Position numbers and translations under genes: made by a program | The notes under the pieces: model-generated | Databases searched by the model: none | Told to the model about the DNA's origin: nothing | The model's input: the letters and a program-made list of their open reading frames with translations, nothing else | Shown: in pieces, positions 4,291 through 23,452 of the stretch | Layout of the letters: each line of letters starts with the position of its first letter | How positions within the stretch are numbered: position 1 is the first letter of the stretch | Assembly: GCA_963844035.1 (NCBI GenBank) | Contig: CAWJMT010000001.1 | Span: 32,001 to 96,000 of the forward strand | Direction: 5' to 3' | Source: an uncultured Gemmatimonadales bacterium | Lineage (GTDB): Bacteria > Gemmatimonadota > Gemmatimonadetes > Gemmatimonadales > GWC2-71-9 | DNA: 64,000 nt

Positions 4291-5127
4291 TCAGGGCGCG
4301 GCGCGAAACCGTGGGTACTCGCCGAGCACGGTGATCTCAGCACCCTGACCCTTGAGCGCGTCGAGCGCTCCCTGCATCGCCGGCTCGGCGATGCGGGTTT
4401 CCACGTCCAGATAGAAGAGATACTGCCACGGCGTCGTGCGGTCGGGGCGGCTTTCGAGCTTCGTGAGGTTGAGCTCTGCGTCGGCAAAGGGGGCGAGCGC
4501 GCGCGCCAGCGTCCCCGAGCGGTGCGGCAGGCGCAGCCGCAACGTCACCTTCGCCGGCACCCCCGCCTCAGGCGCAACCGGCTCACGGCCGACCAGCAGG
4601 AAGCGGGTCTGATTGTGCGGCTCGTCCTCGATGCGCTCGCCCAGAATCTCGAGGCCGTAGCGCCCCGCCGCGAGCTTCCCCGCCACGGCGCCGACCGCCC
4701 GGTCGTTGCGGCGGGCCACCTCGGCCGCCGCGCCCGCCGTGTCGTAGAATGCCACCACCTCGACGTTGGTGAGACTCCGCAGCAGCCGCTCGCACTGCGC
4801 CAACGCGACCGGATGGGACAGCACGCGGCGCAACGAGTCGCGCGCGGATCCGCGGACGCCCAGCAAGCAGTGATGCACCGGGCTCACGACCTCGCCCACG
4901 ATCGCCAGCCCCGACTCGGCGATCAGGTCGAAGTTCGTGGCGATCGACCCCACGAGCGAATTCTCGATCGGCAGCAGGCCGAACTCGGTGCGCGACTCGA
5001 GCACCGACGACGCCACGTCGCGAAATTCGCGGCAGGGCACTGAGGCGGCCTGAGGGTCGAGGAGATAGAGCGCTTCCTCGCTGTAGGCGCCGGGCTCGCC
5101 TTGAAAGGCTATCCGATTGTTCGGCAT
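4291..5127 (-). CDS. pheA: Prephenate dehydratase
   Basis: IAFQGEPGAYSEEA, PIENS, SHPVALAQC, NQTRF, ACT domain NLTKLESRP. Confidence 0.95.
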   Translation of the reverse strand: MPNNRIAFQGEPGAYSEEALYLLDPQAASVPCREFRDVASSVLESRTEFGLLPIENSLVGSIATNFDLIAESGLAIVGEVVSPVHHCLLGVRGSARDSLRRVLSHPVALAQCERLLRSLTNVEVVAFYDTAGAAAEVARRNDRAVGAVAGKLAAGRYGLEILGERIEDEPHNQTRFLLVGREPVAPEAGVPAKVTLRLRLPHRSGTLARALAPFADAELNLTKLESRPDRTTPWQYLFYLDVETRIAEPAMQGALDALKGQGAEITVLGEYPRFRAAP

Positions 5128-5153
5128 CGGGTTACAGTAACAGGCGGCGTCAC

Positions 5154-5187
5154 TTGCTGACAGTGGGCTTCGGGATATATTCGGGTC
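5154..5187 (+). promoter_or_regulatory. Putative sigma70 promoter (TTGCTG-16-TATATT) with overlapping 20-bp operator CTTCGGGATATATTCGGGTC (5168-5187)
   Basis: Motif is identical to 9055-9074 and abuts ATG 5188 (leaderless-type geometry). Confidence 0.75.
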
Positions 5188-6329
5188 ATGGTCCCGCCCC
5201 AAAGCTCCCCGACTCCCAGCCGCCGCCGCGTCCGGCCTGTCCCGAATGCGGAGCCGGACTGGTACGCCAGTCGGCGTGCGTGCTGTGCGTGACCTGTGGA
5301 TGGGCGCGGTGCGGCTAGGCCTACCCGTTCTCGACCAGCGCCTGCGCGGCACGACGTTCGTATCCCTCTCCGCCAAGTCGGTCCTCAACGCGCCGCAGCA
5401 AACGGGGATGGATTTCTGGTCGATCAACCCGTACGTCGGCTGCGAATTCGGATGCAGTTACTGCTACGCACGCTACGCGCACCGCTATGTGGTCGAGCGG
5501 GCGCACGACCGGGGCGCGCTCGACGACGAAGAGTTCCGGGATTTCCGCGGTGCCCACGGGTGGGAAGCGTTCGAGCGCCGCATCTTCGTGAAGGAGCATG
5601 TGCGCGGCGCGCTCGACGCCGATCTGCGGCGATACTTTCGCTCCGCGGCCGGTGGCCGGGCCGCCGCACCGATCGTGATCGGGACCGCCACCGATCCGTA
5701 CCAACCAGCCGAACGTCGCTTCCGGGTGACGCGCGCGATCCTCGAGCGGCTCGCGAGCTACGAAGGCTTGTCGATCGGCATCATCACGAAGAGCCCGCTC
5801 ATCACCCGCGACGCCGACGTGTTGCAGCGCCTCGCTGCCCGCTCCGACCTCGAAGTGTACGTGTCGCTGATCACGGTCGATGCCCCACTGATTCGGAAGG
5901 TCGAGGCCCGCTCGCCCAGCCCGGCGGTGCGGCTGCGAGCGTTGGGTCGCTTGAGGGCAGCCGGGATCAACGCAGGACTTATCATCGCGCCGATTCTTCC
6001 GGGCATCACGGATGATCGGCCGCACCTGGAGGCGCTGTTTCAGGCAGCGCGCGATGCCGATGCGCGATTCGTCCACGCGGGCCCGCTGCGGCTCTATGCG
6101 GCGGTACGAGACCGATTTCTTCCGGTGCTCGAGGCCGAGTTCCCCCATCTGGTCGAGCGCTACGTGCGCGCGTACGCGCGCTACAGCAGCGCGCCGCGCG
6201 AATACGCCGCCGCGCTCAAGCGGCGCATTCAGCGACTGCAGGTACGGTTCGGCTTGCCCGTGAATCGAGGAATGCAGGACCGATATCAGCGGCGGCGACC
6301 CCAGCCGCAGGTCGAGCTGGCGATTCTAG
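5188..6329 (+). CDS. Radical SAM protein, SplB / Rv2578c-like DNA-repair family (indels near 5250-5290 and 6323)
   Basis: INPYVGCEFGCSYCYARY (CxxxCxxC), IGTATDPYQPAE, ITKSPLITRD, APILPGITD. Track ORF 5246-6487 overruns the DUF72 gene; removing one base gives ...QVELAF* at 6329. Confidence 0.85.
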
Positions 6330-7294
6330 GGAGAGGAGTCAGCCCCGCTCAGCCACGCTTCCGCCACCGCGCGAATGGTGCCCGGCGCATTCCCCTCGGC
6401 CCGGTTGTTGGCCAGAATCAACGCCTCGAGGCGCCGCCGCGTCGCTTCGGCGATCAGCCGCAGCAGGTCCTGCCGCAGATCCGGTAGCGGCTCACGAACG
6501 CGGTCGTACGGTTCGAATAATTTCACGGCATCGGCGTAGGCCCGGCCGGGCCTGAGCAGTGCGCGCGCGACCGTGAACTCCGCCGGAAACACCCACGGCA
6601 ACTCGAGCTGCGCGCCGATCGGTGGCATCTCGGTCCAGGAGTTGAACACGTGCGCCACACCATGGCGGGCGAGCACGGCGCCGTGGCGGGGATCGAGTAG
6701 CTCAGGGTTGCGCAGCTCTACCGCGTAGCGCCAGTCGCGCGGCAGCGCTCCCAGGAATCGATCGAGCTGCTTCCGCCCACTCGCCCGCGTCGGGGAGATC
6801 CTTGCCCCGCATCGCCTGGAACTCGAACACGAAGCAGCCGGCGTGATCGCGGAACGCGCGCCCGTAGGGACCGAGCACCGCTTCTTTGAACAGGTCGGCG
6901 TTCAGGAAGTCCGGGTTTCGCAGCCCCGCCAGATTGCCCCAGCGACGATCCTGGTTGAAACGCTTGGCGGTAATGCGATCCCACACCTTGCTGACGCACG
7001 GGAAACCCGGCGGGAGGGCGCTGGCATAGGCCGCCAGCACGGCCTCGGAGGGCGGCTCGTAGAAGGCGCTGTCGATCCCGACGGTGCGGAACAGGGGATA
7101 GCGGGCGTACTCCTCCAGCCGCTTGGCGGGTTGCGGACCGCGATACGTCTCGATGGTAGACGTCACCCGTCCAGCCGTCGTAGGTCCAGGTCGAAGTGCC
7201 GAACTTGATGTTGGACGGGAGCCGGCGGGCCGAGGGCCACCACATCGTCTGCGGGCTGGGAGCGCGCGTCGCCGAAGAGATCGGTCTGTGCCAC
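6326..7294 (-). CDS. DUF72 (YecE-like) family protein (several indels)
   Basis: IKFGTSTWTYDGWTG, YARYPLFRTVGIDSAFY, CVSKVW, FVFEF, NNRAEGNAP spread over three frames; GTG start gives MAQTDLFG. Confidence 0.85.
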
Positions 7295-7325
7295 CTCGTA
7301 ACGTAGCGCGCCACGCCGGGCCGTG

Positions 7326-7371
7326 TTGACGTTGCTCCCGCGCCGTGTATTCTCCGCCGACACCTCGGAGG
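7326..7371 (+). promoter_or_regulatory. Putative sigma70 promoter (TTGACG-16-TATTCT) and SD GGAGG
   Basis: Near-consensus hexamers upstream of ATG 7378. Confidence 0.45.
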
Positions 7372-7377
7372 TAACCC

Positions 7378-8990
7378 ATGCTGCCGCTCCTGCGCGCGGT
7401 TTTCCTGGCCGTTCAGGCCCAGACCGCCGGCGCCCCTACGCCGCCCACCCCGCTGATCGAGAACCTCGGGAAGCTGCATCACGCGATCAGCACCACGGTC
7501 CCGCTGGCGCAGCGCTACTTCGACCAGGGCCTGCTGCTCACGTACGGCTTCAATCACGAGGAAGCCATCAACTCGTTCCGCGAAGCGGCACGGCTCGACT
7601 CGACGTGCGCGATGTGCTACTGGGGTGTCGCGTTCGCCTACGGCCCCAACATCAATATCCCGATGGACCCGTCCGTGATGCCGCAGGTGCTCGAGGCCGT
7701 GCGCGCAGCCTACGCCCGAATATCCCACGCAAGCCCGGTCGAGCGCGCGTTGATCGAAGCGATTGCGACCCGCTACTCCGCCGACACAACAAAGCGTCGC
7801 GGCGCGTTGGACACGGCCTACGCCGCCGCCGCCCGCGATCTGTGGCGTGACTTCCCCGCTGACGACGACGTGGGGACGCTGTACGCCGACGCGCTCATGA
7901 ACCTGGCGCCCTGGAACTACTGGCAGCCCAACGGCACGCCGCGACCGGGGACGCAGATGATCGTCTCGACGCTCGAGCGCATCCAGAAGCGCAATCCCGA
8001 ACCACATCGGCGCCTGCCATCTCTACATTCATGCCGTCGAGGCATCGTTCGAGCCCCAGCGAGCGCTCCCCTGCGCCGAGCGGCTCCCCGGGCTCGCCCC
8101 GGGCGCGGGCCACCTCGTGCACATGCCCGCCCACATCTACATGCGTGTGGGACGCTACGCCGACGCTGTCATCGCCAACTCCCACGCGGCGCACACCGAC
8201 GAGACGTTCATCGAGCGCCGTCATCCCACGGGGTTCTATCCGGTTTACTACTTCCACAACCTGCATTTCCTCTGGGCGGCGACGTATATGGAGGGCCGAA
8301 GCGCGGAGTCGCTGCGCGCCGCACGCGAACTGGTGAAGAGCGTTCCTCCCGAGCTGATCGGGCTGGTGCCGTCGCTCGAGTACCTCGTTCCCACGCCGTT
8401 GCTCGCGCTCGTGCAATTCGGCAAATGGGACGACGTGCTCGCTGAGCCTCAGCCATCAGAGTCGCTGCGATACACCCGCGCCATTTGGCACTACGCGCGC
8501 GGGCGCGCCCTGGCGGCCCGGAATCAGCCGGATCAAGCGGATGACGAGCTCGACAGCCTCACGACAATTCGCGTGGCGATCAAGGACCTGTCACTCGGGT
8601 TCCAGACCGCCGGCAGCCTGCTCGGCGTCGCCGCTCACACCCTGCGAGGACAGATCGCTGCGCAGCGCGGCGACACCGGCGATGGCGGTGCGCGAGCTCG
8701 AGGAAGCGGTGCGGCTCCAGGATGCGCTGATCTATGACGAGCCGCCGCCCTGGTACTATCCCGTGCGCCAAACGCTCGCGGCGACGTTGCTTGCGGCGGG
8801 ACGGGGGGCGGAGGCAGAGGCGGTCTATCGGGAAGACCTGAAGAGAAATCCCGAGAACGGCTGGTCGCTCTTCGGCCTGGCACGGGCGCTTACCGGGCAG
8901 GGCAAACCGGCCGACGCCGCTGCCGTGGATAAGCGGTTCCGCCGGGCGTGGGCGCGCGCGGACGTGGTGCTTACCGCGTCTGGGTTCTAG
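7378..8990 (+). CDS. Secreted TPR-repeat protein (indels near 8000 and 8680)
   Basis: Signal peptide; AQRYFDQGL...FNHEEA...CAMCYWG; HLVHMPAHIY; YDEPPPWYYPVRQ; PENGWSLFGL. Confidence 0.8.
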
Positions 8991-9038
8991 CTTCATAAAG
9001 CGAGGTATTACAATAGCTTAAGGTAAATCATTGGGATC

Positions 9039-9074
9039 TTGCGGCCGATGCGATCTTCGGGATATATTCGGGTC
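9039..9074 (+). promoter_or_regulatory. Putative sigma70 promoter (TTGCGG-18-TATATT) with overlapping 20-bp operator CTTCGGGATATATTCGGGTC (9055-9074)
   Basis: Exact copy of 5168-5187; ends 15 nt upstream of the imuB ATG. Confidence 0.75.
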
Positions 9075-9089
9075 CCTAATCGCCGGCTC

Positions 9090-10373
9090 ATGACTCGCAA
9101 ATCTCCACCGAGCAGCTCGTACGCCGCCTGCTGCTGGATCCCACTCTTCGCCCTCCGCTGCGAGGAGGCGCGGCACCCCGAGCTCGCGGCGCAGCCCTGC
9201 GCGCTGCTCGCCTGCGACGACCTGCGGCGGGTGTGGCAGGTCTCCCCGATCGCCAGGAAGGCGGGCGTCAGCGCCGGTCACACCATCAGCCAGGCGATCG
9301 GTCTCTGTCCCACGCTGCGGCTGTGCGAGCCTGACCCGGTTCACTACGACCAGCAATTCGCTCAGCTGCTGACCGCGCTCGGCACCGTGAGCCCGGTGAT
9401 CGAGCCCGCCGAGCTGGGGCGGGTGTTCGTGGGGATGGACGGGCTGGAGGGACTGTACGGTCCGCCGGAAAAACAGGTGGAAGCGATACGAGTGCGGATT
9501 GCGGAATTCGGAATGCGGAATCGAAGTGCAGGCATCGATTCCGCATTCGACATTCCGCACTCCGCACTCCGTGTAGGGCTGGGGAAAGGGAAAGTTCGTT
9601 TCCTGGGTCGCTGCCACTCGCGCGCGACCTGGACATGCCGTCATCGTCCGCCCGGGGGAAGAGGTAGACGTTTCTCGCCGCTCAACCCCTCGCCGTGCTG
9701 CCGCTCGATCCCGACACGCATCGCCGGCTGCGCCAGCTCGGTCTGAGAACGCTCGCCGACCTGAAGGCGTTGCCTGAGGCGGCGGTCATCGCGCAGTTCG
9801 GCCGCGCCGGCCGCAGGCTGTGGCAGCTGGCGGCGGGAGTGCTCGCCGAGCCGGTCGTGGGACGCGAGGTACCCGAGCCCATCGTCGCGGCCCTCACCTT
9901 CTTCTCTCCGGTCTCCGACCTGGAAATGCTGACGCAGTCGCTGGTGCAGCTGATCGAGCGCGCACTCAAGCATCCGCGTCGCTCAGGGTGGCGCGTGCGG
10001 CAGGTGCGCGTGCGCGCCGCGCTCGAGCACGGGACATCGTGGATGATCGATGCCGTGCTCAAGGACCCGTCAGCGGATCCGAGTCGCATCCTCGCACCGC
10101 TCGATACCCGGCTGGACGTCGGCGCCGCCCACGAAAGCCGTCGAGCGGCTCACGGTCGAGTTCTGCTCCTTCGCTCCGGGGACCACTGCGCTGCAGCTCT
10201 TCGCGCGCGATGCGAACGCGGCCGCGCGAGCCGGCAGGCAGCGCGCACTGCGGTACGCCGTTCAGGAGATCAAGCTCCGGCTGCGGCGGTCACCGCTCTA
10301 TCACATCATCGAGGTGCAGCCATGGTCGCGCATTCCCGAACGCCGCTACGCGTTGATCGACTACGAGCCCTGA
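9090..10373 (+). CDS. imuB: ImuB, catalytically inactive Y-family polymerase homolog (indels near 9590-9690 and 10120)
   Basis: Y-family layout (ARKAGVSAGHTISQAIGLCP, LRQLGLRTLADL) with catalytic acidic motifs lost (WIPLFAL, IEPAELGRVFV); lies upstream of dnaE2. Confidence 0.85.
9490..9569. repeat. Heptamer-repeat inverted repeat, (GAATGCG-like)x5 - 10 nt loop - (CGCATTC-like)x5, in frame inside imuB
   Basis: gagtgcg gattgcg gaattcg gaatgcg gaatcga / tcgattc cgcattc gacattc cgcactc cgcactc. Confidence 0.85.
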
Positions 10374-10615
10374 ATGCGCCGGAAACGGTGGAGGTCGACG
10401 TTGACGCATCGGGAGTACCACGGCGGTCAGGCGGTCAAAAAACAACAGCGGCGGTCAGGCGGTCGAGAACATTCTCGATGTGTGGCGAATCGACGATGAA
10501 TGGTGGCGGCTGCGGATCTCACGTCTCTACTACGACGTCATGCTGGAAGGCGGTGGGCACGTTGTCCTGTTCAAAGATCTTGTCGCGGGTGATTGGTTCG
10601 TCCAGAAAGCCTTAA
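10322..10615 (+). CDS. Small protein resembling the ImuB C-terminal (DUF6504-like) domain (apparently compensating indels)
   Basis: RLRALNAPETVEV...DVWRIDDEWWR...SRLYYDVMLEGG..VVLFKDL..GDWFVQ; sits between imuB and dnaE2. Confidence 0.7.
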   Translation: MVAHSRTPLRVDRLRALNAPETVEVDVDASGVPRRSGGQKTTAAVRRSRTFSMCGESTMNGGGCGSHVSTTTSCWKAVGTLSCSKILSRVIGSSRKP

Positions 10616-10628
10616 CTGACCGCCTACG

Positions 10629-13600
10629 CTGTACGCCGAACTCCACTGCCACTCGGCATTCTCGTTTCTCGATGGCGCCTCACTGCCCGAGCAGCTCGCG
10701 CTCACGGCCGCGAACCTAGGGGTTGCGAGCGTCGCCCTCACCGACCACAACGGCGTGTACGGCTCGATGGCGTTCGCTCAGGAAGCGAAGCAGCTCGGTA
10801 TCCAGGCGATCACCGGCGCCGAGGTGACGCTGCTCGACGGCTCGCACGTCACGTTGCTCGCGGAGACGCCACGCGGGTACGCGAATCTCTGCCGGCTGCT
10901 CACCGAAGCCCATCTTGGCCGGGCCGACCGCCTCGATCCGCGGCTCGACTTCGCGTCGCTCGAAGCCCGCCACGAGGGGTTGATCATTCTCTCCGGCTGC
11001 CGCAACGGCCTTCTCCCCCGCACGCTCGAGCGCGACGGAATAGCTGCCGCGCGCCGGCTCGCCGAGCGCTGCCGCGCGGTGTTCGGTCCCGAGCAATTTT
11101 TTGTCGAGCTGCAACGAAATCTGGTGCGTGGGGATCGCGCGTTGACCCGCGCGCTGAGTGATCTCGCTTCTGACTTACGACTTAGCGTCGTAGCGTCTGG
11201 CAACGTCCACTACCACCAGCGCGACCGACACCGGCTGCACGACGTGTTGGTCGCGATCCGTCATCGCACCACGCTCGACGGCTCGCACGCCGTGCGGCGT
11301 CCCAACAGCGAGTTCTTCCTGCATCCGCCTGAAGATGTCGCTACGATGTTTGCTGACTGTCCCGATGCTGTCGCTAATACTTTGACCATCGCCGAGCGCT
11401 GTAAGCGCCTTCGACCTGACACGCGATCTCGGCTATCACTTCCCTGACTTCCGCGGCGCGGTCGATCGCACCGCCCCCCGGGCGCTCGCCGAGCTGTGCC
11501 GCGCGCGGCTCGATGAGCGCTACCCGGCGGACTCCGGTCACCGCGACGAAGCGGAGCGGCGGCTCGCGGAAGAGCTGCGGCTGATCGCGCATCACGGGTT
11601 GTGTGGGTTCTTCCTGGTCTACCACGACCTCTTCGATCTGGCGCGGGAAGTCGCCGCCGACGTGCGGCGCGGCTCGCGCCGCGCGGCGGGAGGGTTGCTC
11701 CCGGGCCGGGGACGCGGCTCGTCGGTATCGTCGATCGTCTGCTACCTGCTCGGCCTCTCGCACGTCGATCCCGTCGCTACGCGCCTCTTCTTCGGCCGCT
11801 TCCTGAACGAGTCGCTCGCGTCGGTGCCGGACATCGACCTCGATTTCCCCCGCGAGATCCGCGAAGAGCTGATCCGGCGCGTGTACAAACGCTACGGAGA
11901 CGAGCACGTCGGACTCGTGTGCTCGTTCCCGACCTATCGCCTGCGCTCGGCGGTCCGGGAGATCGGCAAGGCGCTGGATCTGCCCCTGGGAGAGATCGAG
12001 CAGGTGGCAAAACTGGCGGACAGGCGGTCTGGCGGTCTGGCGGATGAACTGGATCAGCTCCCGGGGTTCGCCGGCAGGAAAAACGCTCCCTGTGGAAGGA
12101 GTTGTGCGAGCTCGCCGAGGAGATCGCCGGATTGCCCCGTCACGTGTCGCAGCACGTCGGCGGAATGGTGATCTCGAGCCGGCCGCTCGTGGAGCTCGTG
12201 CCGCTCGAGCGCGCCGCGATGGAAGACCGTGTCGTCTGCCAGTGGGACAAAGATTCCTGCGACGATGCGCGCTTCATCAAGATCGACTTCCTGGCGCTCG
12301 GGATGCTGTCGCTGGTGGAGGAGTGCGTCGAGCGGATCGCGGTGCGGGAGGGCACGCCGCCCGATCTCTCGCGCATCGACTTCAACGATCGAGCGGTCTA
12401 CGACCGTATCTGCAAGGGCGACACGGTCGGGCTGTTCCAGATCGAGAGCCGTGCACAGATCCAGATGCTCCGCCGCAGCCGCCCGCGCAATCTCGAGGAC
12501 CTCGCGGTCGAAGTCGCAATCGTGCGGCCCGGGCCAATCGTCGGCGGAGCGGTGAACCCGTACGTGCGGCGCCGCGAGGAGCAGCGCCGCGCCGTAGCGG
12601 AGGGCCGACCCTACGAGCCGCCGCTGGACCATCCGCTGCTGAAGGACGCGTTGACCGAGACGCTCGGCGTGATCCTCTATCAGGATCAGGTGCTCCAGGT
12701 CTGCCAGGCGCTCGCCGGGTTCAGCTCCGGGCAGGCCGAGGCGTTGCGTCGCGCGATGAGTCGCCGGCGCAGCCGCGAGCTGATGGCGGGCTTCTGGGTC
12801 GAGTTCAGGGATGGCGCCGCCGCTCGCGGCGTCCCGGAGCCGGTTGCCGAGCGCGTGTTCACGCACGTCATCGCTTTCTCCGAGTTCGGCTTTCCCAAGT
12901 CGCACGCGGCAGCGTTCGGTCTCCTCGCCTATCAATCGGCGTGGCTGCGGCACTACCACCCCGCGGAGTACTACACGGCGCTCTTCAACAATCAGCCGAT
13001 GGGGTTCTACTCGCTGGATGCGCTGGGACGGGATGCCAAGCGGAACGGGATCACGATCCGTCTCCCCGACGTGAACGTGAGCGACATCTGGTGCTCAGTG
13101 GAAGCCGATGCGGTGCGGATCGGGCTCGGCTTCATCCGCGATTGGAGCGAAGCCACGGCCACGGCGGTCACCGCCGAGCGCGAGCGGAATGGTCCGTTCC
13201 GGAGCCTGGGCGACTTCGTTCGACGCGCGCCCCCGGAGCTCAAGCGCACGGCGATCGAGAACCTCGTGTGGGTCGGCGGGTGTGACGGATTTGGCCTCAC
13301 GCGGCGCGAGCTGCTCTGGCAGGTGGGCCTGTTCCTCCCTCCCAAGGCCGAGCACGGCGACGAGGCGCGCGGGCGGCGCCAGCTCGAGCTGCCGCTCGAT
13401 CATCCGCACGAGCACCTGCGCTTCGGAGGGTTGGAAGCAAACGAGCGGATGCTCGCCGAGTACGCCGTGCTCGGGTTTGCCGCGAGTGGCCACCCGCTTG
13501 CCCTGATGCGCCAGGCCCTGCCGCCGGACGTGGTGCAAAGCGACCGGCTTGCCGGCCTCGCCCACCGGTCACGGGTCGAGGTGGCAGGCCTCGTGGTCGC

Positions 13601-13937
13601 CCGTCAGCGGCCGGAGACGGCGAAAGGGGTCGTCTTCGTGCTGCTCGAGGACGAGGCGGGAATGGTCAACGTCATCGTACGACCGGAGGTCTACGAGCGC
13701 GATCGCGTCGCCGTGCGCGGGGAGCCGTTTCTCTGGATCTCGGGCAGGTTGGCGAAGGATGACGGAGCGCTGAACGTGCTGGCGGAGGAGGTGACGGGGG
13801 CTGCAATGCGGAATGCGGAAGTGGGACGGGGAATGGGTAAGCCACCTCAGGATTCCGCACTCCGCACTCCGAATTCCCCATTCTCGTTTCTCAAGACCAT
13901 GCGCTCCGTCGCGCCGGAATCGAAGGACTGGGGGTGA
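10629..13937 (+). CDS. dnaE2: Error-prone DNA polymerase III alpha subunit DnaE2 (start uncertain; indels near 10720, 11405 and 12080)
   Basis: PHP domain YAELHCHSAFSFLDGAS, TDHNG; GRGSSVSS; PDIDLDF; HVGGMV; KIDFLALGML; FPKSHAAAF; NNQPMGFY; OB-fold RQRPETAKGVVF. Confidence 0.95.
13804..13883. repeat. Second copy of the heptamer-repeat hairpin family, in frame in the dnaE2 3' end
   Basis: caatgcg gaatgcg gaa... gaatggg ... gattc cgcactc cgcactc cgaattc cccattc. Confidence 0.75.
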
Positions 13938-15038: not shown

Positions 15039-15950
15039 TCACTCGCGCTCGGGGCCACCCATCCGATCCTCCCATTCGTCGATTGACCGCGGCCAGTCGT
15101 CCTTGAGCAGCCGTGACAGCGACCGGTCGGCGAACACCTTCCCGCCCGTCTGGCACGTGGCGCAGTAGTTCATTTCGTTCTCCGCATAGCGAACCCGCTG
15201 CACCGGCGAGCCGCACACGGGACATGGCTTGCGGTAGCGGCCGTGTACGGCCATCCCCTCGTGGAACGCGGTAACCTTGTCCGGAAATCCCTTCCCTGCT
15301 TCGGCGCGTAGCCTCTCGATCCACGCGGTGAGCGTGGCCCGCGTGGCCCCGTGCAGCCGATCGAGCTCCGCGTCGCTGGCGGTGGCCGTGAGGGTGAAGG
15401 GGGACAGTTTCGCGGCGTGGAGGATCTCGTCCGAATAGGCGTTGCCGATTCCGGAGACGAGGCGTGGGTCGGTGAGGGCGCGTTTCAGCGTGTGGTTTTC
15501 GCGGCGCAACGCCGCGCGAAACGTGGCCGCGTCGACCTCCAGGACCTCCAGCCCGCCCCGTTCGTGCTCGGCCAAACCAGCCTCGCCACGCGCCACATAC
15601 AGGGCTGCTCGCCGGCGCGTCCCCGCCTCAGTGAACAGCAGCGTGCCGGTCGGAAAATCGAATGCCGCGAGCCCGATCCGGCCGGGGATCGCCGCCCGGG
15701 GACGTTTCCAGCGCAGCCTGCCCGCGATCATGAGGTGGATGACCAGGTAGAGATCGGACTCGAGCCCGATCACGATCCGTTTCCCGAGACGGCGTAGTCC
15801 CGTCACCTTCCGTCCCGCGGCGTCGGCCACTGGCGGATCCACGCTGCGCAGCACGAAGGGACTCCCGATGCGCACGGCCTCGAGCCGCTGACCCAGGACG
15901 TGTGACCGCAATGCGTCCAGGTAGACAACGATGTCGGGCAGCTCGGGCAT
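15039..15950 (-). CDS. Fpg/Nei-family DNA glycosylase
   Basis: N-terminal MPELPD, LGKR, HLMIAG, H2TH motif GIGNAYSDEIL, zinc finger CPVC...CATC. Confidence 0.93.
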   Translation of the reverse strand: MPELPDIVVYLDALRSHVLGQRLEAVRIGSPFVLRSVDPPVADAAGRKVTGLRRLGKRIVIGLESDLYLVIHLMIAGRLRWKRPRAAIPGRIGLAAFDFPTGTLLFTEAGTRRRAALYVARGEAGLAEHERGGLEVLEVDAATFRAALRRENHTLKRALTDPRLVSGIGNAYSDEILHAAKLSPFTLTATASDAELDRLHGATRATLTAWIERLRAEAGKGFPDKVTAFHEGMAVHGRYRKPCPVCGSPVQRVRYAENEMNYCATCQTGGKVFADRSLSRLLKDDWPRSIDEWEDRMGGPERE

Positions 15951-17916: not shown

Positions 17917-20900
17917 GCGCCTGCCCGGCTCTTTCCGAGATAGGTGCGAACGAGTGGGGCCGCCCGCCGGCGTATCAGCACCGCTTTGAGCTGCTCGGCT
18001 TCCTCGGGCGCTACTTCGATCAAGAATCTCTCGCGCTTCCCTTCCCCCTCCTTCACCGCAACCGGAATGCCGTCGCGATAGAGAATCCGGTTGGTCGCCA
18101 CGGCGGCCACGGTGTCGCCGGGCGTGATGATGCCGGCGAGATTGAGCGGGTCTGCCCCGCTCAATGCTACGACCTCACCACGGGCCTCGTCGCGGCGCAC
18201 CGCGCGCAGTAGCCCGACCGCTTCAGTGAGCGCGTACTGCTCGCCCGAGAATCCGCCCACGAAACGCCCACCCCGAATTTCGCCGCGCGCCTCGAGCCGG
18301 CGATACGCGCGCAGGATGTCACGCCAGGGTGCCAGCAGGGATTCACGCGCGACCAGCCGGCGGAACACGACGCCGTAGCGCCGCAGCAGCTGCCAGGCGA
18401 CCGCCTCGGCGAGCTGCTCGTCGGACAAGAGGGAGCCGCGCCGCACTCGGGACCAACGGCCGGCGGTCTCGATCCCGAACGGCGCTGACCGGCCGCGGCG
18501 CCCGAACCCGCCGATCGGACGCCGCCGTTGCGACGGCACCAGGAGCGCGCGCAATCCGGCGAAGCTGTCCGACGTCACGAGCCCCCACGCCACCAGCTCG
18601 CCGAGGCCCTTTTCGACTTCGGTCCGCAACAGCCCGGTGGCGTTCACGAGGTCGCCAAAGAACGACGCGCCGCGCTGGTCCAGCGTATCCAGCACCGCGC
18701 GCCCCGAATGCGACAGTGGCAGCGCCGTTGCGTCGGGCTGAGCCGAGAGGGCCCGCCAGATGTCGCCCCGCTCGCGCTTGAAGAGCGCCGTGGGCGTCGC
18801 GCGAATCGGCCCCGACTTGTGCCCCTGCGACGGCGGGGCGGCCGACAACCGACCCCAGGCGACCGCTCCCGACAGGCACAGACCGTCCAACCACAGGGGA
18901 TCGTAGTCCTCGAGGCGGGCCGGCAGCACGTCCGTTTCCCAGGCCCCCGCTGGTACTTCGTACCCATCGAGCAGCTCGAGCACCGCGGTCAGGCCGTCGG
19001 GTCCCTCCGCGCGGGCGCCCGGGGCCACGCGCTGCCAGCGGAACAAGAAACGCATGAAGTCTGCCGCCGAGACCGGCTCGATCTCCTGACGCAGACGATC
19101 GAGGGTGTAGCGATGCACGCGGGCGAGCAGCCGCCGCTCGCACCATTCCAACTCGCTGCGCCCGGGTGTGAACCGCCCGCGCAGCACGAACCCTTCGTGC
19201 TCCAATGCGCCGAGTGCGAAGTCGATGTCGCCGGTCGCCACGCCCAGCGAGGCGGCGAGCTCCGCGGCGGTGGTGGGTCCCACCGCTTCGAGGCGGCCGC
19301 GAACCAGCTCACGCAGCCCGTCTTCACGCGTCCACACCTTCGCCCGATCGTGCGCCGGCGCTACAAGGAGCGACTCGGTGCGGGTACTCGGGAACACGGC
19401 CTCGATCAACGGCAGCCGCTCGGCCGCGACCCACAGCCGCGGCTCGTGCGTCAGGACTCCCGCGCGGCCGGCGCGTGACGAGCGCTTGGAAGTACCCATC
19501 CCACTTCCCCCTTCCCCCTTCCCCCTCGGTCACCGCTCCCACGATCAGTAGTGCGTCGTGCAGCTCATCAGCGCTCCGAGGATCCGGCCACGCCTCGTCC
19601 TTGACCCGATCGATCGCCGCCTGGTCGAGTCTCCCGAATTCCTCCGCCGTCTTGGTATCGAGCCCGCGCCGCGTAATCACCGCCTGCGTGCGCCGCTCCT
19701 CGAGCGGCGCGTCATCCAGGAACGCATAGGGCTTGGCGTTCAACACTTCGTGAGCGAGGGGCGAGGGCTCGGGGGTGTCGCGCGCGATCAATTGGAAATC
19801 GCCGGCGGTCATCGCCTCGAGCACGCGCTTCAACCCGGGGAAGTCCATCGCCTCGAGGAGACAGTCCTCAATCGTCTGCTTCACCAATGGATGGTCCGGG
19901 ATCTCACGATCGCCGACGAGGTTCTCGGGGCACGCCAGCTGGTCGGGGAACACCGCCGCCACGAGATCTTCGGCGTCCATCCGCTGCAGCGGCGTGGGCA
20001 CTTTCTTCCCACCGCGCGAGCGAAGCACGGCGAGCGCCCGGGTCGCGTTCCAGCGCCAGCGGGTGCCGAACATGGGCGCGTCCAGCATCGCCTGCACGAG
20101 CAGGTGCTCTGCCGTCTCGGGCCTCAGATACTGGAACACGTCGGCCAGCGGGAAGCTGTGCTGGGCGCCGAGCGACAGCACGATCGCATCCTCGGTGGCC
20201 GCCGCCTGCAGCTCGAAGTTGAAGCTGCGGCAGAAGCGCTTGCGCAACGCCAGGCCCCACGCGCGGTTGATCCGGCTGCCGAACGGAGCGTGCAGGACGA
20301 GCTGCATGCCCCCCGCTTCATCGAAGAAGCGCTCCAACACCAGCGTCCGCTGGGTGGGGATGACGCCCAGAATCCGCTGCGACGCCGCGAGATATTCGAC
20401 GATCTGACGGGCCGCCTCTTCGGCCACGCCCACGTCGGTGACGAGCCAGGCGATCGCACCGGCGGGATCGCTCAGGCGGTCGGCGATGTCTTGCCGCAGG
20501 CGCGACACCTCTTCTGACAGCTCGGCGGTGCGCGACGGGGCCTCGCCGAGCCAGAAGGGGATCGACGGCGGCTGGCCCTGCGCGTCAGCGACCCGCACCT
20601 GGCCCGACTCCACCTTGCGAATGAGATACGAGCTGTTGCCGAGCTGGAAGATGTCGCCCGGTGTACTCTCGATCGCGAAGTCCTCGTTGAGGGTGCCCAC
20701 GAACGTCTCAGTGGGCTCGAGGATCACGCGGTAGTCGCCGATGTCGGGAATCGCGCCCCCGGATGTGAGCGCAGCCAGGCGCGCCCCCCGCCGGCCGCGC
20801 AGTCTCCCGTTGACGCCGTCGAAATGCACGTAGGCGCCGCGCCGACCCCGCCGGGTGGTGAACCCGTCGGACAGCATGCGCACCACGTCGTCGAAATCCT

Positions 20901-22227
20901 TGCGGGAGAGGTCGCGGTACGGGTACGCGCCCCGCACCAGGTCGAACAGCGCCTCCTCACTCCAATCGTCGCAGGCCGTGGCGGCCACCACCTGCTGCGC
21001 CAGGATGTCGAGCGGCCGGTCGGGGATGATCAACCGGTCGAGCAGCTGGCCGCGCGCGGCCCGCACCAGCGCGGCGCACTCGATCAGTTCGTCTCTCGAC
21101 AGAGGGAAGAGGCGGCCCTTGGGAATGGCACCCAAGTGATGGCCGGAACGCCCCACGCGCTGCAGCAGCGTCGATATCGACCGCGTCGAGCCGATCTGAC
21201 AGACTAAGTCGACGGTGCCGATGTCGATCCCCAGCTCGAGCGAGGCCGTGGCGACGAGCGCCTTGAGCTTGCCTTCCTTGAGCCGGGTCTCCGCATCGAG
21301 CCGCTTCTCTTTCGACAGGCTGCCGTGGTGCGACGTCACGTGCTCGGCCCCGATGCGCTCCGACAGGTGCATGGTCACCCGCTCGGCGAGCCGGCGCGTA
21401 TTCACGAACACGAGCGTGGTCCGGTGCTCGGCGATCAGCCGGGCCAGCCGTTCGTACAGCTCGTCCCACACCTCTCCCGCCATCACGGCTTCGAGCGGTG
21501 ACGAGGGGATCTCGATCGCCAAATCGCGCGCGCGCGCGTGTCCGGAATCGATGATCGCCGGTTCCGGACGGCGGGAACCAGCGAGGAAACGCCCGATCTC
21601 TTCGATCGGCCGCTGGGTGGCGGACAAACCGATCCGCTGCAGCGGATGCCCGGTGAGTGCGGCGAGCCGCTCCAGCGAGAGCGCGAGATGGCTCCCGCGC
21701 TTGTCCCGGGCCACGGCGTGAATCTCGTCCACGATCACCGTGCGCACGGTGCGCAGTATCTCGCGCGCGCGCTCGGATGTGAGAACCAGGAAGAGGGACT
21801 CGGGCGTCGTGACCAGGATGTGCGGCGGGCGCCGCACCATCGCCTGGCGCTCCGCCCCCGGCGTGTCGCCGGTACGCACCAAGGTGCGAAGGTCTACGTC
21901 GGGGAGGCACAGCTCCGCGAGGGTCGCTCGAATCCCGGCGAGCGGCTCGGCGAGGTTCTTCTGAACGTCGTTCGACAGGGCCTTGAGCGGTGAGACGTAC
22001 AGCACCTGCACTTCGTCACGCAGCGTGCCGTCCAACCCCTGGCGCAACAATGAATCGATGGCGGCGAGGAAGGCGGCGAAGGTCTTGCCGGACCCCGTGG
22101 GCGCCGCGATGAGCGCATCGCGGCCCGATTGGATGACGGGCCAGGCGCGGCGCTGCGGCTCGGTCGGGTCGGGGAATCGCGCCTGGAACCACTGCGCGAC
22201 GGCAGGGTGAAAACCGGACAGCGGCAT
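17913..22227 (-). CDS. lhr: Lhr-family SF2 helicase (indel near 19480)
   Basis: [52 protein letters not shown]-terminal winged helices and LLRRYGVVF...[13 protein letters not shown]. Confidence 0.93.
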
Positions 22228-22240
22228 CGCTCGAATACTA

Positions 22241-23452
22241 CTACACGCCCGTCTCCAGGGGCACGCCGCGGGTCGCGGCGATTCGCTCGATCGTCTCGCC
22301 GATCTTGTTGTTGGGGGTCGACGCGCCGGCCGTGACGCCAATCGTGATCTGCCCCGGGGGCAGCCAGGCAGCGAGCTCTGCCTCGTCATGCGTGCCCGCT
22401 GGGCGGTACCGGACTGTGCCGGCCTCGGAGTCAATGCAGGCGGCGTCTTCGATATGGTACGTGGGGACGCGCTGCGCGCAGATCGCGGCCAGGTGGGCGG
22501 TGTTGCTCGAATTGTAACCGCCGATCACCACCATCAGGTCCAACGGTTGGGCAATCAGCTTCAGGACGGCGTCCTGGCGGTCCTGCGTGGCCGAGCAGAT
22601 CGTGTCGAAGGTACGGAAATGCTCGGCGAGGGCGGCTTGGCCATACCGCGCGACCATACTCTTGCGCACCTCGCCGGCGATGGCGAGCGACTCACCGGAC
22701 AGCATCGTGGTCTGGTTCGCGACCCCCACGCGCACCAGATCCCGCTCGGGATCGAAACCCGGCGACAGCTTGTCCGCGAACCGCTCGAGAAGCTCCTTCG
22801 CGCCGCCCCGGCCCTCCACGTACGCACACACGACGTGCGCCTCGTCCATGTCACGCACGACGAGGTACCGTCCGGCCGGGTACTTGGTGACCTGGCTGGC
22901 GGTCGCCTTCGTCTCCTCGTGGTAGAACTTTCCGTGGATGAGGGCGGTGAAACCGTCACGTGCGTATGACTCGACCCGCTTCCAGACGTTCAGGACCGAC
23001 CCGCAGGTGGTGTCCACGAGCACGCAACCGATGGCGCGCAGCCGGTCCAAGTCCTGGACGGTGACCCCGAACGCGGGAAGAATCACAACGTCGCCCGGCG
23101 TCACCACTCCGAAATCGAAATCGGTGCCTTCCGGATGATGGAGGCATTCCACCCCCATGTCGTGGAGCTTCGCGTTCACGTGCGGGTTGTGGATGATCTC
23201 CCCGACCAGGAAGATGCGTTGCGTGGGGAACTTGGTGCGGGTCTCGTAGGCGTATTCTACGGCCCGGTCCACGCCGTAGCAGAAGCCGAATTCGCCGGCC
23301 AGTTTGAACGTCAGGTCGCCGGCGACGAGGGCATATCCGCGCCCGCGAATCTGGTCTACGAGGCGGCTGTGGTAGTCGGCCGCGAGCGCGCCTTCGATGA
23401 CGCCCTTGAGGCCAAATCCCCGGCGGAAATAGGTCTGTTCCACGGGTGGCAA
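22241..23452 (-). CDS. ispH: 4-hydroxy-3-methylbut-2-enyl diphosphate reductase
   Basis: [47 protein letters not shown]. Confidence 0.95.

Follow-up and report, generated by a model that had tools for sequence, protein, structure and literature searches.

Not every operator of LexA, the repressor of the SOS response to DNA damage, is a palindrome: Acidobacterium capsulatum uses the direct repeat GTTC-N7-GTTC. It is well established that LexA represses the SOS genes and releases them when RecA stimulates its self-cleavage (PMC8565304), and both SplB radical-SAM genes (PMC8565304) and imuB-dnaE2 (PMC9578287) are documented members of SOS regulons. In Balneolaeota the LexA box is TTACACATATTTTWTACATA, with a regulon of lexA, recA, translesion polymerases, a helicase and a radical-SAM gene, and the paper describing it cites work on Patescibacteria and Acidobacterium for direct-repeat LexA motifs (PMC7739468). 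Which box does LexA use in Gemmatimonadota? The literature searched, a body outside which most subscription journals and supplements fell, held neither a Gemmatimonadota SOS box nor a TTCGG-N6-TTCGG consensus, and the string 'Gemmat' does not occur in PMC7739468 or PMC8565304. Here we describe a direct repeat, TTCGG-N6-TTCGG, that is present twice in a 64-kb window (the whole stretch of DNA analysed) from an uncultured Gemmatimonadales bacterium of soil, in front of a zinc-ribbon/radical-SAM operon and of imuB-dnaE2. As a prediction from sequence, it is very probably the operator of this genome's single LexA.

How does this repeat compare with the known boxes? It shares with the alphaproteobacterial box GTTC-N7-GTTC (Caulobacter; PMC8565304, PMC9578287) the direct repeat, the 11-bp period, the TTC core and the kind of regulon; here, however, the base before TTC is free and GG follows it, and GTTC-N7-GTTC itself occurs in only 1 of 109 upstream regions. 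The Balneolaeota box likewise is a direct repeat bound by LexA and governs a compact regulon, but its half-site sequence is unrelated, and it was validated by electrophoretic mobility shift assay (PMC7739468), whereas ours is a prediction. In the Firmicutes box CGAAC-N4-GTTCG, the right half-site GTTCG resembles the TTCG half-site found here (PMC8565304, PMC9578287). That box and the E. coli box CTGT-N8-ACAG are nevertheless palindromes, unlike our repeat, and the GAAC-N4-GTTC core and CTGT-N8-ACAG are found in 0 and 1 of the 109 regions. An earlier note on this DNA had already pointed to the alphaproteobacterial geometry and to the mismatch with both palindromes, and the counts bear it out. 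Describing a LexA box in a further phylum is nothing unusual, and the published Patescibacteria box may be this same TTCGG-N6-TTCGG motif, so the result is of use but no great surprise. What it adds is a predicted SOS box for an abundant, little-studied soil phylum and a first outline of the regulon, comprising lexA, recA, zinc-ribbon/radical-SAM, imuB-dnaE2 and, in some genomes, a UvrD-like helicase, with uvrA and dinB outside it. It also points to a specific residue-base pair through which the recognition of direct repeats by LexA can be tested.

A predicted LexA operator in the source genome and its relatives

On its + strand, the window holds two identical copies of the 20-mer CTTCGGGATATATTCGGGTC, at 5168-5187 and 9055-9074. 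The 60 nt on either side of the two copies share no similarity, which excludes a segmental duplication, and about 0.02 such pairs per window are expected by chance under a base-composition model. The + strand holds only two distinct repeated 20-mers, the second being a low-complexity heptamer tandem repeat. These copies and their differing flanks had been reported in the earlier note, as had a TTGCTG or TTGCGG placed 16 or 18 nt before a TATATT, and all were recovered as described. The core proposed there, TTCGGG-ATATA-TTCGGG, survives in its 11-bp period and not in its half-site: the conserved unit is the 16-base direct repeat TTCGG-N6-TTCGG, the third G is partly conserved, and TTCGGG-N5-TTCGGG with two mismatches is at chance level in the window (11 vs 9.6). 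We place operator 1 at 5169-5184 and operator 2 at 9056-9071, both on the + strand and both reading TTCGG-GATATA-TTCGG.

Each operator overlaps a predicted promoter. Promoter 1 (5154-5181, +), of sigma-70 type, has its -35 element TTGCTG at 5154-5159 and, after 16 nt, its -10 element TATATT at 5176-5181, inside operator 1 and 6 nt ahead of ATG 5188. Promoter 2 (9039-9068, +) has TTGCGG at 9039-9044 and, after 18 nt, TATATT at 9063-9068 inside operator 2. These spacings recur in relatives: radical-SAM promoters of promoter-1 geometry have TTG at the 16-nt spacer in 13 of 16 cases, and 8 of 9 imuB promoters share the 18-nt spacer. This overlap of constantly spaced half-sites with the predicted core promoter is what a LexA operator should show. 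The identity of the copies over 20 bp would follow from each meeting a LexA consensus and a -10 consensus at once.

The source genome (G000; 3.47 Mb, 84% complete) contains only one further copy within four mismatches of the 20-mer, at C2:41246, about 105 nt before a RecA domain. Two weaker copies, at C12:98634 and 98608, lie directly before the only S24-peptidase gene. This gene is lexA: aligned to solved LexA proteins, its product has the DNA-binding domain, the Ala-Gly cleavage site and the catalytic Ser and Lys, and its closest named relatives are Gemmatimonadales proteins of 80-91% identity. G000 thus encodes both RecA and a LexA with intact catalytic residues, and the two sites at lexA fit autoregulation. 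The gene divergent to lexA at C12 resembles trpC when its translation is judged by eye.

A weight matrix was built from 89 lexA and recA sites of relatives, with G000 excluded. Its four best matches in G000 are lexA (28.4; the other copy there is weaker), operator 1 (28.1, rank 2 in the genome), operator 2 (27.3) and recA (25.2); the next scores 21.3. Nine matches reach at least 19 bits, against none in the reversed genome. In this matrix both TTCG halves are invariant, the fifth G is strong, the spacer is T-rich and the base before TTC is free (A/C/G/T frequencies of 0.15/0.45/0.20/0.20 in the first half-site and 0.30/0.21/0.26/0.23 in the second). Matches scoring 17-20 at C35:232544, C25:37615, C11:5161, C36:244617 and C31:125495 lie apparently in coding frames and were not accepted.

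The repeat is conserved at orthologous promoters, as the earlier note had anticipated for the regulon it inferred. TTCGG-N6-TTCGG is present at every one of the 30 best lexA loci drawn from 41 genomes (G000 among them), in two copies at 29. For recA (30 of 38 matches plus G000), all 31 loci have the site with at most one mismatch, 23 of them exactly; one family favours TTCGT in the first half. The radical-SAM set, 30 of 35 matches, lies outside the training of the matrix, and here the site is found within 400 nt at 30 of 30 loci: on the gene strand only at 14, on the opposite strand only at 7 and on both at 9. Spacing is strict: TTCG-N7-TTCG occurs in 31 of 31 recA and 30 of 30 radical-SAM regions, and none of the other spacings between 2 and 13 occurs in more than 3. 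Half of the 18 imuB orthologues have a site of their own and six lie 1.2-1.45 kb behind the site of a radical-SAM operon; of the remainder, two lack a site within 1.5 kb and one is at a contig end. Nine relatives (L087, L096-L099, L101, L102, L104, L109) have a head-to-head pair of operators at the radical-SAM promoter, separated by 7-11 nt; one covers the -10 and the other, in inverted orientation, the start.

Position relative to the predicted promoter varies from gene to gene. Of 58 lexA sites, 29 fall between -35 and -10 and 29 just after -10, while the predicted -10 is within the site's spacer at 20 of 23 radical-SAM sites and 9 of 9 imuB sites. Such freedom of position and orientation across genes would mark a repressor site, not a sigma element or an activator site. 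How might repression work? LexA would keep the zinc-ribbon/radical-SAM and imuB-dnaE2 operons off until DNA is damaged. Half-sites 11 bp apart would face the same side of the helix, and bound LexA would cover the predicted -10 in the operator spacer and block RNA polymerase. RecA filaments on single-stranded DNA would then trigger LexA self-cleavage, freeing lexA, recA, a repair enzyme and an error-prone polymerase together.

Evidence against LexA control and other candidate regulators

Several observations weigh against this assignment. The promoters are consensus predictions, and 15 of 33 recA sites fit none of the promoter geometries used. The relatives are kin rather than independent samples. 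Two genes at which the earlier note had expected the motif do not bear it out: a site lies upstream of uvrA at 1 of 30 loci and of dinB at 0 of 26 (four imuB-type loci excluded), which indicates that the regulon is small. Among Patescibacteria LexA rows of the same helix type as that of G000, 7 of 12 have no site within 250 nt, and the covariation of helix residue and box described below falls on about one branch and is not independent evidence.

LexA binding and induction by damage are, moreover, predictions from sequence, and another regulator could be absent from the 84% complete assembly. Could a different damage-responsive repressor, one that also controls lexA, be at work? A divergent second LexA-like paralogue would be one such protein, and paralogues of this kind exist in families f2, f7 and f8; a regulator missing from the assembly would be another. 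The box nevertheless occurs in families that yielded no second paralogue, among them almost the whole family of G000, and the second paralogues' own promoters lack it (a TTCGG site upstream in 0 of 14). The fifth base of the box shifts with the helix residue of the primary LexA, and the double sites at lexA are consistent with autoregulation. We consider such a repressor improbable, and with it the "other damage regulator" that the earlier note had set beside a LexA-like repressor; its LexA-like repressor, by contrast, agrees with an intact LexA and with sites at lexA, recA and their orthologues.

The -10-like hexamer at a fixed place in both window copies could instead be part of a promoter read by an alternative sigma factor, or the repeat could serve a damage-activated activator of the WYL kind (PafBC/DriD). 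We regard both as very improbable: depending on the gene, the box covers, precedes or follows the -10, and 16 of 30 radical-SAM loci have it on the opposite strand, which is impossible for a sigma element, and no WYL-domain regulator was found in the 84% complete G000. That the copies arose by chance or through a small duplication, or belong to a generic genomic repeat, has next to no probability left. A loose form of the pattern does match 12 times in G000, several times inside open reading frames (ORFs), but it has only 4 to 52 matches per genome, the flanks of the window copies are unrelated, chance would yield about 0.02 such pairs, and the retention of the site at orthologous promoters across the class refutes this explanation. 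A reversed-pattern control over 21 genomes (379 against 87 matches), in which dinucleotide content is not kept, shows low copy number only; the scatter that the earlier note had named as telling against its proposal is not seen. Control by LexA remains the very probable reading of the repeat.

LexA helix residue and box variants

LexA is present in 147 of 151 genomes of the phylum, and to the loci already obtained we added 40 further upstream regions, selected either to widen the taxonomic sampling or because the locus was a second copy. Primary lexA loci of six other families of class Gemmatimonadetes have the site at 15 of 15. The 13 LexAs from other Gemmatimonadota classes differ: all have Lys where G000 has Glu in the alignment. 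We take this helix position to be E. coli residue 45. At these 13 loci the box is TTCG(C/T)-N6-TTCG(C/T) in ten, the G form in none, and absent within 200 nt in three. All 47 rows with an AT..E helix, some of them from the same genome, carry the G-form box. The Lys-type LexAs form approximately one branch in a quick LexA tree without bootstrap. Co-evolution of the fifth base of the box with the helix residue is accordingly a lead from sequence comparison, short of proof.

A divergent LexA-like paralogue with a helix of mostly K-S-T-K-T-V-S forms its own clade in f2, f7 and f8 (L201, L203, L206, L208, L210, L212, L214-L218, L222, L198), where it has no TTCGG site upstream.

Is the box confined to this lineage? 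The Patescibacteria set comprises 29 parsed lexA regions (from the best 30 loci; 87 of 121 genomes matched) of a phylum with small genomes, and one LexA of this phylum carries the label candidate division WWE3. TTCG-N7-TTCG is present in 5 of the 29 and exact TTCGG-N6-TTCGG in 3, with any other spacing in at most one. The LexA next to each of the five boxes has an AT..E helix, which in two cases is the SLATVHEHL of G000. In five non-Gemmatimonadota genomes reached through lexA similarity, recA has no site, and these include G171, whose lexA has one. The label "lineage-specific" given to the box at the outset holds only in part. The box runs through class Gemmatimonadetes; other classes of the phylum have a TTCGC variant, and some Patescibacteria lexA genes have the box too, so that judged by sequence it is probably not unique to the lineage.

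A wider reading, which we offer tentatively and think somewhat doubtful, is that one direct-repeat LexA family spans Gemmatimonadota and part of Patescibacteria. Helix residue 45 would read the fifth base of the half-site (Glu with G, Lys with C), sites would be single, tandem or head to head, and the Gemmatimonadetes regulon, not yet in print, would extend past repair functions and include an outer-membrane barrel and an RND pump. If this is true, changing a single residue could probe how a LexA dimer, itself symmetric, reads a direct repeat.

The two operons, their neighbours and further sites

The first gene of operon 1 is a zinc-ribbon micro-ORF (5188-5318, +) with six cysteines in the pattern CPxCG...CxxCxxCGWxRCG and weak Pfam matches only. 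ATG 5188, likely a leaderless start given the predicted promoter, had been assigned to the radical-SAM gene; its frame ends after 34 codons, and what begins there is the micro-ORF, whose ribbon is encoded 2 nt out of frame with the ATG. The micro-ORF is intact in relatives, two of which (G001 and G004) begin with the identical GGGTCATG, and it leads the radical-SAM operon in most of them. Related-strain contigs have a net 2-nt deletion at 5207-5215 in 3 of 4 sequencing runs compared, and by frame arithmetic this deletion would bring the ribbon into one frame with ATG 5188; the runs consist of assembled contigs and contain at most 0.19 of the words. Because imuB and dnaE2 are also broken into pieces, the frameshift is likely an assembly error.

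The radical-SAM gene follows at 5300-6487 (+), its 3' end uncertain, and its frame probably begins at ATG 5300. It matches Pfam Radical_SAM, and NCBIfam rSAM_Rv2578c at 197.9 bits, below the 430 cut-off; we call it SplB-like and related to the Rv2578c/PA0069 families. That SplB-type genes and imuB-dnaE2 are usual SOS members, a premise of the earlier note, is documented in the papers cited above. On the other side of operator 1 lies a divergent prephenate dehydratase gene (4291-5127, -), which is probably not a target of the operator. With a TACTGT of its own placed 6 nt ahead of the ATG, the gene, within 4291-5139 (-), looks leaderless.

Operon 2 begins with an imuB-like Y-family gene at 9090-10373 (+), which matches Pfam IMS, has weak Pol IV matches and is split over several frames in the assembly. 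A short Trp-rich ORF (10370-10615, +; two frames) separates it from a dnaE2-type error-prone polymerase gene at 10615-13937 (+; several frames, 5' boundary approximate), whose C-terminal piece has its best match in NCBIfam PRK05672. No imuA adjoins this operon in the window. A Fpg/Nei-family glycosylase (15039-15950, -) and an Lhr-type helicase (19324-22434, -) lie close to the SOS operons and have no operator.

Beyond the window, a gene for an outer-membrane beta-barrel is preceded by one to three half-site repeats in G000 (L313, C27:94953-94979). Four of five genus relatives (L308-L311, L316) score at least 18 and G004 scores 13.4; the repeats are absent in two other genera. They are followed by a conserved TTCAAG-N4-TTCAAG repeat, which suggests a second regulator. 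Further loci come from a selection by eye of 20 out of 150 listed matches. A UvrD-family helicase gene has a strong site over its -10 and a near-leaderless start in G004, G005 and G001 (L288, L289, L290), and no close orthologue of it was found in G000. Strong sites also lie upstream of an AcrB-family RND pump gene in G006 and G009 (L291, L293) and of a GAF-PAS sensor gene in G002 and G006 (L294, L298); the G000 homologues of both lack one. Within operon 2, a heptamer tandem repeat of the TTCCGCA/CTCCGCA type lies within the coding frames of imuB (about 9480-9570) and dnaE2 (about 13810-13880), and the two tracts share an exact 20-mer, at 9552 and 13852.

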